Of a stretch of 16,712 nt of DNA, positions 8,254 to 16,712 are shown in pieces. The position numbers and the translations under genes were made by a program. The notes beneath the pieces are model-generated. The model saw nothing but the letters and a program-made list of their open reading frames with translations, ran no database searches and had not been told where the DNA came from. Source of the stretch: Escherichia coli. Lineage in GTDB: Bacteria > Pseudomonadota > Gammaproteobacteria > Enterobacterales > Enterobacteriaceae. The number at the start of each line of letters is the position of its first letter. The first letter of the stretch is position 1. Location: the NCBI RefSeq assembly GCF_003334315.1, contig NZ_QOWR01000074.1; one strand, given 5' to 3'.

Positions 8254-10230
8254 ATGTCTGACGACATGTCTATGGGTTTGCCTTCGTCAGCGGGCGAACA
8301 CGGTGTACTACGCTCCATGCAGGAGGTTGCAATGAGCTCCCAGGAAGCCAGCAAGATGCTGCGTACTTACAATATTGCCTGGTGGGGCAATAACTACTAT
8401 GACGTTAACGAGCTGGGCCACATTAGCGTGTGCCCGGACCCGGACGTCCCGGAAGCTCGCGTCGATCTCGCGCAGTTAGTGAAAACTCGTGAAGCACAGG
8501 GCCAGCGTCTGCCTGCACTGTTCTGTTTCCCACAGATCCTGCAGCACCGTTTGCGTTCCATTAACGCCGCGTTCAAACGTGCGAGGGAATCCTACGGCTA
8601 TAACGGCGATTACTTCCTTGTTTATCCGATCAAAGTTAACCAGCACCGCCGCGTGATTGAGTCCCTGATTCATTCGGGCGAACCGCTGGGTCTGGAAGCC
8701 GGTTCCAAAGCCGAGTTGATGGCAGTACTGGCACATGCTGGCATGACCCGTAGCGTCATCGTCTGCAACGGTTATAAAGACCGCGAATATATCCGCCTGG
8801 CATTAATTGGCGAGAAGATGGGGCACAAGGTCTATCTGGTCATTGAGAAGATGTCAGAAATCGCCATTGTGCTGGATGAAGCAGAACGTCTGAATGTCGT
8901 TCCTCGTCTGGGCGTGCGTGCACGTCTGGCTTCGCAGGGTTCGGGTAAATGGCAGTCCTCCGGCGGGGAAAAATCGAAGTTCGGCCTGGCTGCGACTCAG
9001 GTACTGCAACTGGTTGAAACCCTGCGTGAAGCCGGGCGTCTCGACAGCCTGCAACTACTGCACTTCCACCTCGGTTCGCAGATGGCGAATATTCGCGATA
9101 TCGCGACAGGCGTTCGTGAATCCGCGCGTTTCTATGTGGAACTGCACAAGCTGGGCGTCAATATTCAGTGCTTCGACGTCGGCGGCGGTCTGGGCGTGGA
9201 TTATGAAGGTACTCGTTCGCAGTCCGACTGTTCGGTGAACTACGGCCTCAATGAATACGCCAACAACATTATCTGGGCGATTGGCGATGCGTGTGAAGAA
9301 AACGGTCTGCCGCATCCGACGGTAATCACCGAATCGGGTCGTGCGGTGACTGCGCATCACACCGTGCTGGTGTCTAATATCATCGGCGTGGAACGTAACG
9401 AATACACGGTGCCGACCGCGCCTGCAGAAGATGCGCCGCGCGCGCTGCAAAGCATGTGGGAAACCTGGCAGGAGATGCACGAACCGGGAACTCGCCGTTC
9501 TCTGCGTGAATGGTTACACGACAGTCAGATGGATCTGCACGACATTCATATCGGCTACTCTTCCGGCATCTTTAGCCTGCAAGAACGTGCATGGGCTGAG
9601 CAGCTTTATTTGAGCATGTGCCATGAAGTGCAAAAGCAGCTGGATCCGCAAAACCGTGCTCATCGTCCGATTATCGACGAGCTGCAGGAACGTATGGCGG
9701 ACAAAATGTACGTCAACTTCTCGCTGTTCCAGTCGATGCCGGACGCATGGGGGATCGACCAGTTGTTCCCGGTTCTGCCGCTGGAAGGGCTGGATCAAGT
9801 GCCGGAACGTCGCGCTGTGCTGCTGGATATTACCTGTGACTCTGACGGTGCTATCGACCACTATATTGATGGTGACGGTATTGCCACGACAATGCCAATG
9901 CCGGAGTACGATCCAGAGAATCCGCCGATGCTCGGTTTCTTTATGGTCGGCGCATATCAGGAGATCCTCGGCAACATGCACAACCTGTTCGGTGATACCG
10001 AAGCGGTTGACGTGTTCGTCTTCCCTGACGGTAGCGTAGAAGTAGAACTGTCTGACGAAGGCGATACCGTGGCGGACATGCTGCAATATGTACAGCTCGA
10101 TCCGAAAACGCTGTTAACCCAGTTCCGCGATCAAGTGAAGAAAACCGATCTTGATGCTGAACTGCAACAACAGTTCCTTGAAGAGTTCGAGGCAGGTTTG
10201 TACGGTTATACTTATCTTGAAGATGAGTAA
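8254..10230 (+). CDS. speA: Biosynthetic arginine decarboxylase (PLP-dependent), 658 aa
   Basis: Translation [49 protein letters not shown]... The track ORF starts at a TTG four codons upstream; the ATG at 8254 is taken as the start. Confidence 0.96.
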
Positions 10231-10299
10231 GTCCTGTGTTACTTGAATCCGCTTAATTTAGCGGTGATAATCCGCCACAATTTATTGTGACAAATCCAA

Positions 10300-10339
10300 C
10301 CCTTCCTCGTCGGGCCTAACGACGCGGAAGGGTTTTTTT
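10300..10339 (+). terminator. Intrinsic terminator / attenuator between speA and speB
   Basis: Inverted repeat cccttcctcgtcg (10300-10312) / cgacgcggaaggg (10320-10332), one mismatch, followed by a run of seven Ts at 10333-10339. It starts 70 bp after the speA stop and ends about 30 bp before the speB start. Confidence 0.7.
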
Positions 10340-10367
10340 ATATCGACTTTGTAATAGGAGTCCATCC

Positions 10368-11288
10368 ATGAGCACCTTAGGTCATCAATACGATAACTCA
10401 CTGGTTTCCAATGCCTTTGGTTTTTTACGCCTGCCGATGAACTTCCAGCCGTATGACAGCGATGCAGACTGGGTGATTACTGGCGTGCCGTTCGATATGG
10501 CCACTTCTGGTCGTGCGGGTGGTCGCCACGGTCCGGCAGCGATCCGTCAGGTTTCGACGAATCTGGCCTGGGAACACAACCGCTTCCCGTGGAATTTCGA
10601 CATGCGTGAGCGTCTGAACGTCGTGGACTGCGGCGATCTGGTATATGCCTTTGGCGATGCCCGTGAGATGAGCGAAAAGCTGCAGGCGCACGCCGAGAAG
10701 CTGCTGGCTGCCGGTAAGCGTATGCTCTCTTTCGGTGGTGACCACTTTGTTACGCTGCCGCTGCTGCGTGCTCATGCGAAGCATTTCGGCAAAATGGCGC
10801 TGGTACACTTTGACGCCCACACCGATACCTATGCGAACGGTTGTGAATTTGACCACGGCACTATGTTCTATACCGCGCCGAAAGAAGGTCTGATCGACCC
10901 GAATCATTCCGTGCAGATTGGTATTCGTACCGAGTTTGATAAAGACAACGGCTTTACCGTGCTGGACGCCTGCCAGGTGAACGATCGCAGCGTGGATGAC
11001 GTTATCGCCCAAGTGAAACAGATTGTGGGTGATATGCCGGTTTACCTGACTTTTGATATCGACTGCCTGGATCCTGCTTTTGCACCAGGCACCGGTACGC
11101 CAGTGATTGGCGGCCTGACCTCCGATCGCGCTATTAAACTGGTACGCGGCCTGAAAGATCTCAACATTGTTGGGATGGACGTAGTGGAAGTGGCTCCGGC
11201 ATACGATCAGTCGGAAATCACTGCTCTGGCAGCGGCAACGCTGGCGCTGGAAATGCTGTATATTCAGGCGGCGAAAAAGGGCGAGTAA
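10368..11288 (+). CDS. speB: Agmatinase (agmatine ureohydrolase, arginase family), 306 aa
   Basis: Translation [60 protein letters not shown]... includes the arginase-family Mn-binding motifs GGDH and DAHTD. Confidence 0.96.
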
Positions 11289-11299
11289 GCACCAGATGC

Positions 11300-11485
<186 letters not shown>

Positions 11486-11493
11486 ACCAGGCT

Positions 11494-12252
11494 TTACTTA
11501 ATCCCATCCGCGCTCATGCGATCGCGAATATGCTGGGCGCGTTCGGCGGATGCAGGATGGTCGTCAAACATTGAGCTTTGGCGACCTTCTTCCAGTTTTG
11601 CCAGTTTTTCAAAGCTGGTGGCAAGACCTGCCGGGCTGATGCCGCGTTGGCGCAGAAGATCGTAAGAATAATCATCGGCTTCTGCTTCCTGGCGCTGGGA
11701 GAATTGCGAATTGACTAATTTCTCGCCCAGATTACCAAGTTGTGATTGAGATAAACTTCCGACAATCCCGCCCGCAGAGGCCGCAGCTACTCGCACGGCA
11801 TTTGTACCAAGTGCCACCTGCATTCCTTTTTTCACATGGCCTAACGCCACGTGCCCCATTTCGTGACCGATCACCGCTTCGACTTCGTTATCCGTCATCA
11901 TATCCATCAGCCCGCTATAGACACGGATACAGCCGTTAGCCATTGCAAAGGCGTTCACATCCTTCGCCATATACACTTTGTAATTTACCGGCTGACCGTT
12001 GATATTGTTGCCTAGCGCATTGGCAATAGTTGTCAGACGTTTAGCGTATTCGCTATTGGCTGGCGCAATCGTCGCCTTGCTGTCCATCTCCTGACATGCC
12101 TGATCGCTCAGGGCTTTCACCTGCGCATCACTCAAACTGTAAGCCTGAAAAGCTTCCGCTCCTGATGAGAGCAGTCCGTTGGAGTCCATATTCTGGCAAC
12201 CGGTCAGTACCGTTGCCACGCTCATTGCTACCAATAAGGCGCGAATTTTCAT
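11494..12252 (-). CDS. loiP: Outer-membrane M48-family zinc metalloprotease LoiP (YggG), 252 aa
   Basis: The ORF contains MKIRALLVAMSVATVLTGCQ (lipoprotein signal) and a HEMGH zinc motif. Start trimmed from the 325-codon track ORF to the ATG at 12250-12252. Confidence 0.88.
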   Translation of the reverse strand: MKIRALLVAMSVATVLTGCQNMDSNGLLSSGAEAFQAYSLSDAQVKALSDQACQEMDSKATIAPANSEYAKRLTTIANALGNNINGQPVNYKVYMAKDVNAFAMANGCIRVYSGLMDMMTDNEVEAVIGHEMGHVALGHVKKGMQVALGTNAVRVAAASAGGIVGSLSQSQLGNLGEKLVNSQFSQRQEAEADDYSYDLLRQRGISPAGLATSFEKLAKLEEGRQSSMFDDHPASAERAQHIRDRMSADGIK

Positions 12253-12529
12253 GTTTTCTCTTCCGCACAAGGTCAGGATTATTCTAAAAATGCGCCGTTT
12301 GCAGGTGAATCGACGCTCAGTCTCAGTATAAGGAAAAGCGCAGCGGACGGGCGAGTAGATTGCGCAACATGCGAGCATGATCCAGAGATTTCTGAAGCGG
12401 CAAAAGGATGTTCCATGTACATGACGCGCGGCTTGCGGTAAATTGTTGGCAAATTTTCCGGCGTAGCCCAAAACGCGCTGTCGTCAAGTCGTTAAGGGCG
12501 TGCCCTTCATCATCCGATCTGGAGTCAAA

Positions 12530-14521
12530 ATGTCCTCACGTAAAGAGCTTGCCAATGCTATTCGTGCGCTGAGCATGGACGCAGTACAGAAAGCCAAATC
12601 CGGTCACCCGGGTGCCCCTATGGGTATGGCTGACATTGCCGAAGTCCTGTGGCGTGATTTCCTGAAACACAACCCGCAGAATCCGTCCTGGGCTGACCGT
12701 GACCGCTTCGTGCTGTCCAACGGCCACGGCTCCATGCTGATCTACAGCCTGCTGCACCTCACCGGTTACGATCTGCCGATGGAAGAACTGAAAAACTTCC
12801 GTCAGCTGCACTCTAAAACTCCGGGTCACCCGGAAGTGGGTTACACCGCTGGTGTGGAAACCACCACCGGTCCGCTGGGTCAGGGTATTGCCAACGCAGT
12901 CGGTATGGCGATTGCAGAAAAAACGCTGGCGGCGCAGTTTAACCGTCCGGGCCACGACATTGTCGACCACTACACCTACGCCTTCATGGGCGACGGCTGC
13001 ATGATGGAAGGCATCTCCCACGAAGTTTGCTCTCTGGCGGGTACGCTGAAGCTGGGTAAACTGATTGCATTCTACGATGACAACGGTATTTCTATCGATG
13101 GTCACGTTGAAGGCTGGTTCACCGACGACACCGCAATGCGTTTCGAAGCTTACGGCTGGCACGTTATTCGCGACATCGACGGTCATGACGCGGCATCTAT
13201 CAAACGCGCAGTAGAAGAAGCGCGCGCAGTGACTGACAAACCTTCCCTGCTGATGTGCAAAACCATCATCGGTTTCGGTTCCCCGAACAAAGCCGGTACC
13301 CACGACTCCCACGGTGCGCCGCTGGGCGACGCTGAAATTGCCCTGACCCGCGAACAACTGGGCTGGAAATATGCGCCGTTCGAAATCCCGTCTGAAATCT
13401 ATGCTCAGTGGGATGCGAAAGAAGCAGGCCAGGCGAAAGAATCCGCATGGAACGAGAAATTCGCTGCTTACGCGAAAGCTTATCCGCAGGAAGCCGCTGA
13501 ATTTACCCGCCGTATGAAAGGCGAAATGCCGTCTGACTTCGACGCTAAAGCGAAAGAGTTCATCGCTAAACTGCAGGCTAATCCGGCGAAAATCGCCAGC
13601 CGTAAAGCGTCTCAGAATGCTATCGAAGCGTTCGGTCCGCTGTTGCCGGAATTCCTCGGCGGTTCTGCTGACCTGGCGCCGTCTAACCTGACCCTGTGGT
13701 CTGGTTCTAAAGCAATCAACGAAGATGCTGCGGGTAACTACATCCACTACGGTGTTCGCGAGTTCGGTATGACCGCGATTGCTAACGGTATCTCCCTGCA
13801 CGGTGGCTTCCTGCCGTACACCTCCACCTTCCTGATGTTCGTGGAATACGCACGTAACGCCGTACGTATGGCTGCGCTGATGAAACAGCGTCAGGTGATG
13901 GTTTACACCCACGACTCCATCGGTCTGGGCGAAGACGGCCCGACTCACCAGCCGGTTGAGCAGGTCGCTTCTCTGCGCGTAACCCCGAACATGTCTACAT
14001 GGCGTCCGTGTGACCAGGTTGAATCCGCGGTCGCGTGGAAATACGGTGTTGAGCGTCAGGACGGCCCGACCGCACTGATCCTCTCCCGTCAGAACCTGGC
14101 GCAGCAGGAACGAACTGAAGAGCAACTGGCAAACATCGCGCGCGGTGGTTATGTGCTGAAAGACTGCGCCGGTCAGCCGGAACTGATTTTCATCGCTACC
14201 GGTTCAGAAGTTGAACTGGCTGTTGCTGCCTACGAAAAACTGACTGCCGAAGGCGTGAAAGCGCGCGTGGTGTCCATGCCGTCTACCGACGCATTTGACA
14301 AGCAGGATGCTGCTTACCGTGAATCCGTACTGCCGAAAGCGGTTACTGCACGCGTTGCTGTAGAAGCGGGTATTGCTGACTACTGGTACAAGTATGTTGG
14401 CCTGAACGGTGCTATCGTCGGTATGACCACCTTCGGTGAATCTGCTCCGGCAGAGCTGCTGTTTGAAGAGTTCGGCTTCACTGTTGATAACGTTGTTGCG
14501 AAAGCAAAAGAACTGCTGTAA
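12530..14521 (+). CDS. tktA: Transketolase 1, 663 aa
   Basis: Translation [41 protein letters not shown]... Start at the ATG at 12530, preceded by a ggag Shine-Dalgarno at 12521-12524. The track ORF begins at an upstream GTG. Confidence 0.97.
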
Positions 14522-14535
14522 TTAGCATTTCGGGT

Positions 14536-14566
14536 AAAAAGGTCGCTTCGGCGACCTTTTTTATTA
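14536..14566 (+). terminator. Intrinsic terminator of tktA
   Basis: Stem aggtcgc (14540-14546) / gcgacct (14551-14557) with loop ttcg, followed by ttttttatt. An A-run precedes it, so it could function bidirectionally. It lies 15 bp after the tktA stop. Confidence 0.8.
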
Positions 14567-14834
14567 CCTTGATATGTCCGTTTGCGGACAAGCAATAGAT
14601 AAGGCGTGTTGTAGATCACAAATATTTATATGCAATAAATATCAATTATGTAATATGCATCACGATATGCGTATTGACATTTGTTGTTATATCTATAACT
14701 CAATGTTATATAAGAAATTAATAATTCACTGTTTTCAAAACACCGGTTTCCCTGCTCAATTGCTTTCATTAAACCGCACGAGTATTTTATTTTTACCGCC
14801 GGACGGTACCCTAAAAATAAAATAAGGATAATTT

Positions 14835-15251
14835 ATGCGGCTTAGTGATTATTTTCCAGAATCATCAATCTCAGTTATACATTCAGCAAAAGATTGGCAG
14901 GAAGCTATCGATTTCTCGATGGTATCATTGCTGGATAAAAACTATATCAGCGAGAATTACATTCAGGCAATTAAAGATTCCACCATTAACAATGGCCCTT
15001 ATTATATTCTCGCACCAGGCGTGGCAATGCCTCATGCGCGACCGGAATGTGGGGCGCTTAAAACCGGGATGTCTTTGACATTACTTGAACAAGGTGTTTA
15101 TTTTCCGGGGAATGACGAACCAATTAAATTACTCATCGGACTCTCTGCTGCCGATGCCGATTCGCACATTGGCGCTATTCAGGCGTTAAGTGAATTACTG
15201 TGCGAAGAAGAAATACTCGAACAACTCTTAACAGCATCATCAGAAAAATAA
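14835..15251 (+). CDS. cmtB: Cryptic mannitol-specific PTS EIIA component, 138 codons here; likely C-terminally truncated by a nonsense codon
   Basis: Translation MRLSDYFPESSISVIHSAKDWQEAIDFSMVSLLDKNYISENYIQAIKDSTINNGPYYILAPGVAMPHARPE... is a PTS EIIA(Mtl/Fru)-type domain. The frame stays open for 8 more codons (LADIISRG) beyond the TAA at 15249-15251. Confidence 0.85.
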   Translation: MRLSDYFPESSISVIHSAKDWQEAIDFSMVSLLDKNYISENYIQAIKDSTINNGPYYILAPGVAMPHARPECGALKTGMSLTLLEQGVYFPGNDEPIKLLIGLSAADADSHIGAIQALSELLCEEEILEQLLTASSEK

Positions 15252-15305
15252 TTAGCGGACATTATCAGCCGCGGATAATTACTCTCTCCTCTACAGGATA
15301 ATATT

Positions 15306-16508
15306 ATGGAAAACAAGTCTGCTCGTGCAAAGGTCCAGGCTTTTGGGGGCTTTTTGACTGCAATGGTCATCCCCAATATTGGTGCTTTTATTGCCTGGGG
15401 TTTTATTACTGCGTTATTTATTCCCACCGGTTGGCTGCCTAACGAACATTTCGCCAAAATTGTCGGCCCGATGATTACCTATTTATTGCCCGTGATGATT
15501 GGTTCTACAGGTGGTCATCTGGTCGGCGGTAAACGCGGGGCGGTCATGGGCGGAATAGGTACTATTGGTGTGATCGTTGGCGCAGAGATCCCGATGTTCC
15601 TTGGCTCAATGATCATGGGGCCGCTCGGTGGGTTGGTCATAAAATATGTCGATAAGGCACTGGAAAAACGCATACCTGCCGGTTTTGAGATGGTTATCAA
15701 TAACTTCTCATTAGGTATCGCGGGGATGCTCCTTTGTCTGCTGGGTTTTGAAGTTATCGGCCCGGCGGTGTTAATTGCCAATACTTTCGTCAAAGAGTGT
15801 ATTGAGGCGCTGGTACATGCGGGTTATCTGCCATTGTTGTCAGTCATCAATGAACCGGCGAAAGTGCTTTTCCTCAATAATGCGATCGATCAGGGCGTCT
15901 ATTATCCGCTGGGAATGCAACAGGCTTCGGTTAACGGTAAATCCATCTTCTTTATGGTGGCCTCTAACCCAGGTCCGGGCCTGGGGCTGCTGCTGGCGTT
16001 TACCTTGTTTGGTAAAGGGATGAGTAAACGTTCTGCGCCCGGGGCGATGATTATTCACTTCCTCGGTGGGATCCACGAACTGTATTTCCCGTATGTGCTG
16101 ATGAAGCCGCTGACCATTATTGCCATGATTGCGGGCGGTATGTCTGGCACCTGGATGTTTAACTTACTGGACGGTGGTCTGGTGGCTGGCCCAAGTCCGG
16201 GGTCTATCTTTGCTTACCTGGCACTGACGCCGAAAGGCTCGTTCCTGGCGACAATTGCCGGTGTTACGGTAGGTACCCTGGTGTCCTTTGCTATTACTTC
16301 GCTGATACTGAAGATGGAAAAAACGGTGGAAACGGAGAACGAAGATGAGTTTGCTCAGTCAGCCAATGCGGTTAAGGCGATGAAACAAGAGGGTGCATTC
16401 TCGTTAAGCAGGGTTAAGCGTATCGCCTTTGTTTGCGATGCGGGGATGGGCTCCAGTGCGATGGGCGCGACCACCTTCCGTAAACGCCTGGAAAAAGCGG
16501 GGCTGGCA
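15306..16508 (+). pseudogene. cmtA: Cryptic mannitol-specific PTS EIICB component, truncated at codon 401 by IS1 insertion
   Basis: Translation MENKSARAKVQAFGGFLTAMVIPNIGAFIAWGF... is an EIIC membrane domain followed by the start of EIIB (FVCDAGMGSS). The frame runs into the IS1 IRL at 16509 and ends after 8 IS1-encoded codons (GDAANLLI) at 16535. Confidence 0.85.
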
Positions 16509-16712
16509 GGTGATGCTGCCAACTTACTGATTTAGTGTATGATGGTGTTTTTGAGGTGCTCCAGTGGCTTCTGTTTCTATCAGCTGTCCCTCCTGTTCAG
16601 CTACTGACGGGGTGGTGCGTAACGGCAAAAGCACCGCCGGACATCAGCGCTATCTCTGCTCTCACTGCCGTAAAACATGGCAACTGCAGTTCACTTACAC
16701 CGCTTCTCAACC
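16509..16712 (+). mobile_element. IS1 insertion sequence, partial (23-bp IRL at 16509-16531 plus 5' part of insA); continues beyond window end
   Basis: ggtgatgctgccaacttactgatttagtgtatgatggtg... matches the canonical IS1 left end as I recall it. It is the reverse complement of 1-204. Confidence 0.95.
16564..16712 (+). CDS. insA: IS1 InsA, 5' fragment running off the window
   Basis: The GTG at 16564 translates to [49 protein letters not shown]. Confidence 0.88.

Follow-up and report, generated by a model that had tools for sequence, protein, structure and literature searches.

A close described counterpart of the locus analysed here is cmtA of Escherichia coli K-12 MG1655 (b2933, 1389 nt), which encodes the 462-aa EIICB protein of a cryptic mannitol-like PTS. 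The label 'cryptic' reportedly goes back to Sprenger (1993). In K-12, the genes are arranged in the order tktA-cmtB-cmtA, and yggP starts 14 nt after cmtA. The length of 462 aa is shared by nearly all listed members of the 90%-identity cluster, including that of E. fergusonii. A second point of comparison is MtlA, which combines three domains in one protein (EIICBA); in the case of CmtA, the EIIA is a separate protein, CmtB. The structures of the MtlA EIIB domain (1VKR, 1VRV and 2FEW) align with residues 366-462 of CmtA along their full solved length, the CDAGMGSS phosphorylation loop included.

Disrupted versions of cmtA have been annotated as well. In E. coli LR-48 (NZ_AP027543.1) and Q65 (NZ_CP180222.1), the gene is interrupted by IS1, a 768-bp element of E. 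coli and Shigella (IS1A, IS1B and IS1R types), and PGAP lists both alleles as cmtA 'incomplete, missing C-terminus'. The Q65 record names the system a cryptic mannitol PTS. An earlier note on the DNA studied here had likewise called the operon cryptic, in agreement with this PGAP note and with the UniRef name for the system. Here, we analysed a 16,712-nt stretch of E. coli DNA (contig NZ_QOWR01000074.1, assembly GCF_003334315.1; below, the window), in which cmtA occupies its orthologous position downstream of tktA and cmtB and runs directly into an IS1 end.

The cmtA reading frame enters IS1 after codon 401

A base-by-base comparison of the window with cmtA of K-12 MG1655 showed that nucleotides 1-1203 of the gene are identical except for G1034A, and that all remaining differences start at nucleotide 1204, which corresponds to window position 16509. 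The break coincides with a codon boundary: codon 401 (GCA, Ala) ends at position 16508, and IS1 takes the place of codon 402 from 16509 on. A three-way alignment of the window, K-12 and LR-48 placed the break at the identical position. As the next base is A in K-12 and the first base of IS1 is G, the two sequences share no base here and the position of the junction is unambiguous. The features at this end of the window are as follows.

15306 to 16508, plus strand: native part of cmtA, codons 1-401 of 462, PTS mannitol-family EIICB (K-12 cmtA nucleotides 1-1203 except G1034A; order tktA-cmtB-cmtA as in K-12 and in E. coli VTB96935v)
16338 to 16340, plus strand: codon 345, AAC (Asn) versus AGC (Ser) in K-12 and VTB96935v (S345N, G to A at 16339), between the EIIC and EIIB matches
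16509 to 16535, plus strand: IS1-encoded tail of eight codons (GDAANLLI) and the TAG stop at 16533-16535, from the translation of the open reading frame
16509 to 16712, plus strand: IS1 nucleotides 1-204, cut by the window end, with the left terminal repeat (IRL) at 16509-16531 and the 5' part of insA from GTG at 16564 (terminal repeat, matches to transposase loci, InsA profile)

The 23-nt terminal repeat of IS1, GGTGATGCTGCCAACTTACTGAT, occurs at 16509-16531 on the plus strand with 0 mismatches, compared to 0.00 occurrences expected in 200 shuffles. Thousands of E. coli records contain annotated IS1 transposase loci that match the 204 nt at the right end of the window. The GTG at 16564, about 55 nt into the element, opens the zinc-binding N-terminus of InsA. 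The 49 residues of InsA that lie within the window passed the NF050000 profile (42.8 versus a cut-off of 28); owing to this short length, they scored 39.1 against NF033558, below its cut-off of 100.

The cmtA-derived open reading frame extends from 15306 to 16535 on the plus strand and encodes 409 aa. Its native part, ending in RKRLEKAGLA (FVCDAGMGSSAMGATTFRKRLEKAGLA), is followed by GDAANLLI and the stop. The earlier note had described a cmtA frame that enters IS1 at 16509 after codon 401 and ends eight codons later; the K-12 comparison, the exact IS1 terminus and the TAG at 16533-16535 bear this out. It had also put the TAG inside the IRL. The stop indeed belongs to the IS1 end, but the canonical repeat is 23 bp long and the TAG, at IS1 nucleotides 25-27, lies two bases past it. 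Whichever of the three frames is used on entering the left end of IS1, a stop follows within 27 nt (TGA at 3-5, TGA at 20-22 and TAG at 25-27), so that a gene interrupted in the same orientation gains at most eight foreign residues. The frame used by cmtA gives the longest of the three possible tails.

Two further sequence elements were observed around the junction. An 8-bp hairpin spans it at 16502 to 16523 on the minus strand, formed by host GCTGGCAG and IS1 CTGCCAAC and followed by CCCGCTTTTT, which gives it a terminator-like appearance; the junction probably created it by chance. The consensus scan that picked up this hairpin also returned a promoter-like site within the IS1 left end (16516-16543). 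The overall counts of the scan were not above those of shuffled controls. A scan of the whole window against Rfam returned no RNA family at the gathering score.

Truncated CmtA keeps its membrane domain and loses most of EIIB

Compared to the intact 462-aa protein, the window product lacks 61 residues. The parts of the protein concerned are encoded as follows.

15330 to 16337, plus strand: EIIC membrane domain, residues 9-344, intact (TIGR00851, 480.8 bits versus a cut-off of 468.4; Pfam PTS_EIIC, PF02378, at residues 20-277)
16419 to 16508, plus strand: EIIB remnant, residues 372-401, comprising strand 1, the Cys377 loop and helix 1 (positions 1-30 of the 90 of the Pfam PTS_IIB model)
16434 to 16436, plus strand: TGC codon of Cys377, the predicted phosphorylation site (aligned in MtlA IIB with a Cys of 1VKR, in place of which the 1VRV/2FEW chain has Ser)

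Both the window product and K-12 CmtA pass the mannitol-type EIIC model TIGR00851, and the Pfam PTS_EIIC match covers residues 20-277 in the intact and the truncated protein alike. The two proteins differ in EIIB. The Pfam PTS_IIB match (PF02302) spans residues 372-454 of intact K-12 CmtA (model positions 1-89 of 90) and only residues 372-401 of the window product (model positions 1-30 of 90). Thus, the window allele keeps about the first third of a domain that is complete in MtlA and in K-12 CmtA. Cys377 is retained, at a position which we take to be equivalent to the phosphorylated Cys384 of MtlA, but the domain around it is no longer complete.

The structural extent of the loss was estimated from an AlphaFold single-sequence model of residues 362-462 of intact CmtA (pLDDT 90.5, pTM 0.83). 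In this model, strand 1 (372-377) and helix 1 (383-397) precede the break. Strand 2 (403-408), strand 3 (418-422), helix 2 (423-432), strand 4 (437-440) and helix 3 (447-460) follow it, so that three of the four strands and two of the three helices of the intact domain are lost after residue 401. As judged from the domain matches and this model, the remnant should neither fold into a phosphotransfer domain nor take phosphate from CmtB. In line with this, the NCBIfam model NF011663, whose curated cut-off is 589, gave 548 bits for truncated CmtA and a passing 592.9 for K-12 CmtA, and the open reading frame is therefore better described as a truncated derivative of the CmtA family than as a functional member. 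Given this domain architecture, PTS function is very likely lost, while the membrane domain may still be made.

These results agree with the earlier proposal that the insertion cuts EIIB soon after the phospho-cysteine loop and removes its distal part. The FVCDAGMGSS stretch put forward as this loop contains Cys377, which aligns with the MtlA IIB cysteine of 1VKR, and the alignment to full-length CmtA accounts for the missing C-terminal residues. CmtA homologues do not end near residue 401: full-length CmtA continues to residue 462, as do the alignments of the MtlA IIB structures. The proposed IS-mediated inactivation of cmtA is likewise supported, in so far as the loss of EIIB suggests it.

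A second, inverted IS1 end lies at the other side of the window

The earlier note made no mention of IS1 at the left end of the window, where a second copy begins.

1 to 204, minus strand: second IS1 end, IS1 nucleotides 1-204 in reverse complement, inserted 44 bp beyond the stop of ruvX, IRL pointing into the window (terminal repeat and comparison with the right copy)

Its terminal repeat, at 182-204 on the minus strand, shows 1 mismatch to GGTGATGCTGCCAACTTACTGAT, and the two IS1 ends differ solely at IS1 nucleotide 8. This copy is located in the yggR-ruvX intergenic region, and the flank from position 205 on is collinear with E. coli VTB96935v (NZ_CP178662.1). Over window positions 205-16508, only 2 mismatches to the latter were seen in 16,304 nt, one at 5300 (galP) and one at 16339. 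A Shigella origin, initially suspected from the many IS1 copies, was rejected on the strength of this near-identity to an E. coli chromosome. The inverted IS1 pair brackets these 16,304 bp of core chromosome, which carry ruvX, yqgE, gshB, rsmE, endA, sprT, galP, metK, speA, speB, loiP, tktA, cmtB and the truncated cmtA.

The window looks like a whole short-read contig with an IS1 copy at either end, the two being inverted and both cut at IS1 nucleotide 204, and the IS1 ends explain the positions at which the contig stops. Only nucleotides 1-204 of each copy of the 768-bp element are accordingly included. The insA-insB' programmed frameshift and the right-end repeat of the cmtA-side IS1, the target duplication of a simple insertion and the 3' end of cmtA, which the earlier note expected on the far side of this copy, would all fall beyond the window.

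Occurrence of the junctions and state of the operon

Neither the cmtA-IS1 junction nor the IS1 junction on the ruvX side was found in complete E. coli genomes (0 of 5,426 for each). The cmtA-IS1 junction was also not found in GTDB representative genomes or in JGI metagenome contigs. The identical junction is present in an independent Logan assembly of SRR1122540. The contig concerned stops at the same TAG and is listed for 5 samples, and the junction is therefore not an assembly quirk of the window. For the exact 409-aa protein, there is a single recorded contig, which comes from a Logan assembly and ends at the TAG. The far-side junction predicted for a simple insertion (IRR-GGGCTGGCA-ATTGAAGT; IRR + GGGCTGGCA + ATTGAAGTAAAAC) was absent from the JGI metagenome contigs, a collection that also lacks the observed junction. 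Among the longer contigs, matches to the 51-aa open reading frame expected from the cmtA 3' remnant came solely from unrelated genomes, most of them frameshift-rich assemblies. A literature search for cmtA with cmtB or IS1 yielded nothing relevant to the window allele.

The upstream gene of the operon also deviates from K-12.

14835 to 15251, plus strand: cmtB (EIIA), 138-aa allele, upstream gene of the same operon as cmtA (TAA at 15249-15251 in place of K-12 Gln139, CAA; NF007358, 307.6 versus a cut-off of 192)

CmtB thus has 138 aa in the window versus 147 aa in K-12. We considered this stop as a sign of further operon decay and rejected the idea, as the 138-aa allele (WP_001239647.1) is widespread, being found on at least 1000 contigs, and scores above the NCBIfam equivalog cut-off. 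Downstream, the 14-nt spacing in K-12 means that yggP may be co-transcribed with cmtA. IS1 insertions are classically polar, so that expression of yggP-glpX-fumE may be lowered as well.

Other strains carry independent insertions in the cmt region

Eight complete genomes carry an IS1 in the same orientation at most about 600 bp downstream of the window site, and six of these (LR-48, Q65, 64EVA, NH-21, 1368KP and EC21Z-137) were examined. The elements are located as follows.

LR-48 (NZ_AP027543.1): IS1 after cmtA nucleotide 1229, 9-bp duplication CGCCATAGA
Q65 (NZ_CP180222.1): IS1 after cmtA nucleotide 1235, 9-bp duplication AGAAAACGT
64EVA: IS1 after cmtA nucleotide 1371
NH-21: IS1 after cmtA nucleotide 1372
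1368KP: IS1 after cmtA nucleotide 1420
EC21Z-137: IS1 after cmtA nucleotide 1519, in yggP

All examined elements are 768 bp long and flanked by target duplications of 8 or 9 bp, and the distal sequence is retained in 6 of 6. The LR-48 and Q65 alleles resemble that of the window most closely in gene, IS family and orientation, with EIIB cut 26 and 32 nt further downstream, respectively. In contrast to the window, the full 768-bp IS1, the 9-bp duplications and the cmtA 3' remnant are all visible in these two strains. As the insertion sites differ from that of the window (nucleotide 1203), the LR-48 and Q65 events are independent of it. Beyond these, IS30-like (ISAeca1), IS4-like (ISVsa5) and further IS1A/IS1B insertions occur in cmtA or cmtB of other strains. 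Such scattered hits are consistent with a dispensable operon.

With the window included, three IS1 events fall within 33 bp (nucleotides 1203, 1229 and 1235). This hints at a local target preference, although statistically it is unconvincing. We therefore did not retain an IS1 micro-hotspot (1203/1229/1235; 1371/1372): a rough estimate built on the counts of genomes and IS1 places gave about 0.2-0.4 same-orientation events expected by chance near the window site versus 2 observed, and for dispensable DNA the number of hits there differs from random expectation by no more than a few-fold.

A simple insertion is the most likely origin of the truncation

Taken together, it is highly probable that IS1 transposed into cmtA, most likely through a simple 768-bp insertion, and that the gene became a pseudogene with the loss of most of EIIB. 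In this scenario, IS1 would have transposed into cmtA of a phylogroup-A-like E. coli, the element adjoining the gene right after nucleotide 1203, with its IRL and insA in the same direction as cmtA. Translation of cmtA would then enter IS1 and stop at the TAG after eight codons. With the truncated CmtA, phosphate would no longer be transferred from CmtB onto the sugar, making cmtA a pseudogene. A simple insertion would further place a predicted 9-bp duplication, GGGCTGGCA, and cmtA nucleotides 1195-1389 beyond IS1. That the insertion was a simple one is most likely by analogy with the six other E. coli genomes.

Several other readings of the locus have to be weighed against this one. The window resembles a short-read contig with both ends stopping at IS1 nucleotide 204, and it could hence be a chimera that joins cmtA to a collapsed IS1 repeat. 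Both the break at the exact IS1 terminus and the identical junction in the independent Logan assembly, on a contig recorded in 5 samples, argue against such an artefact, which we regard as extremely improbable. A deletion is another candidate. IS1 can generate adjacent deletions, and by this route, or by recombination between direct IS1 copies, the 3' end of cmtA and downstream genes (yggP, glpX/yggF, fumE and beyond) would be gone and the far side of IS1 would be unrelated DNA. The far side lies beyond the window, and the junction predicted there was not found in the metagenome contigs, as a deletion would have it; however, the latter scan is uninformative since those contigs lack the observed junction too, and the comparator events were without exception simple insertions with the distal sequence kept. 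A deletion thus appears quite unlikely.

The second IS1 end at 1-204 makes an inversion, like a deletion, a real alternative. With IS1 nucleotides 1-204 at both ends and the IRLs pointing toward the segment, the two copies form an inverted pair, the geometry expected of inversions, and neither junction occurs in any of the 5,426 complete genomes. The 16.3-kb segment from ruvX to the truncated cmtA could accordingly be inverted relative to its flanks, through recombination within the inverted pair or through a single intramolecular event of duplicative inversion; the yggR side would then lie beyond the IS1 that adjoins cmtA. The same four junction sequences are expected, however, from two independent simple insertions, from an inversion by later recombination and from a duplicative inversion, and only long-range linkage separates them. 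Nothing in the window favours an inversion, and the difference at IS1 nucleotide 8 speaks mildly against one copy being a fresh replicative product of the other. We consider an inverted segment rather unlikely. The broader proposal that the pair represents an IS1-driven inversion or a composite-transposon-like unit of the 16.3-kb core block (ruvX, gshB, galP, metK, speAB, tktA, cmtB), with the truncation of cmtA as its by-product, is similarly doubtful. The truncation itself is identical whether it arose by insertion, deletion or inversion. A different question is whether truncated CmtA might still be useful as a mannitol-family permease reduced to EIIC, with MtlA supplying the EIIB in trans. 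Its EIIC is intact and passes TIGR00851, and separately expressed MtlA domains can complement each other. Nevertheless, the window holds no separate EIIB gene, annotators call the system cryptic even in its intact form, and IS insertions are scattered across cmtA and cmtB in other strains, as expected of a dispensable gene; such a role is very improbable.

Implications for the cmt operon

Simple insertion of IS1 into cmtA thus remains the preferred reading, and its outcome is an ordinary IS1-generated pseudogene in a dispensable, poorly expressed operon. As none of the 5,426 complete E. coli genomes has the cmtA-IS1 junction and at least 5 SRA samples do, it could be used as a lineage marker. 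The correct label for the locus is cmtA pseudogene (cmtA::IS1) rather than a 409-aa transporter, and the finding has little import beyond annotation. For the biology of E. coli, it represents one further case of insertion sequences striking a dispensable, cryptic sugar-uptake operon.
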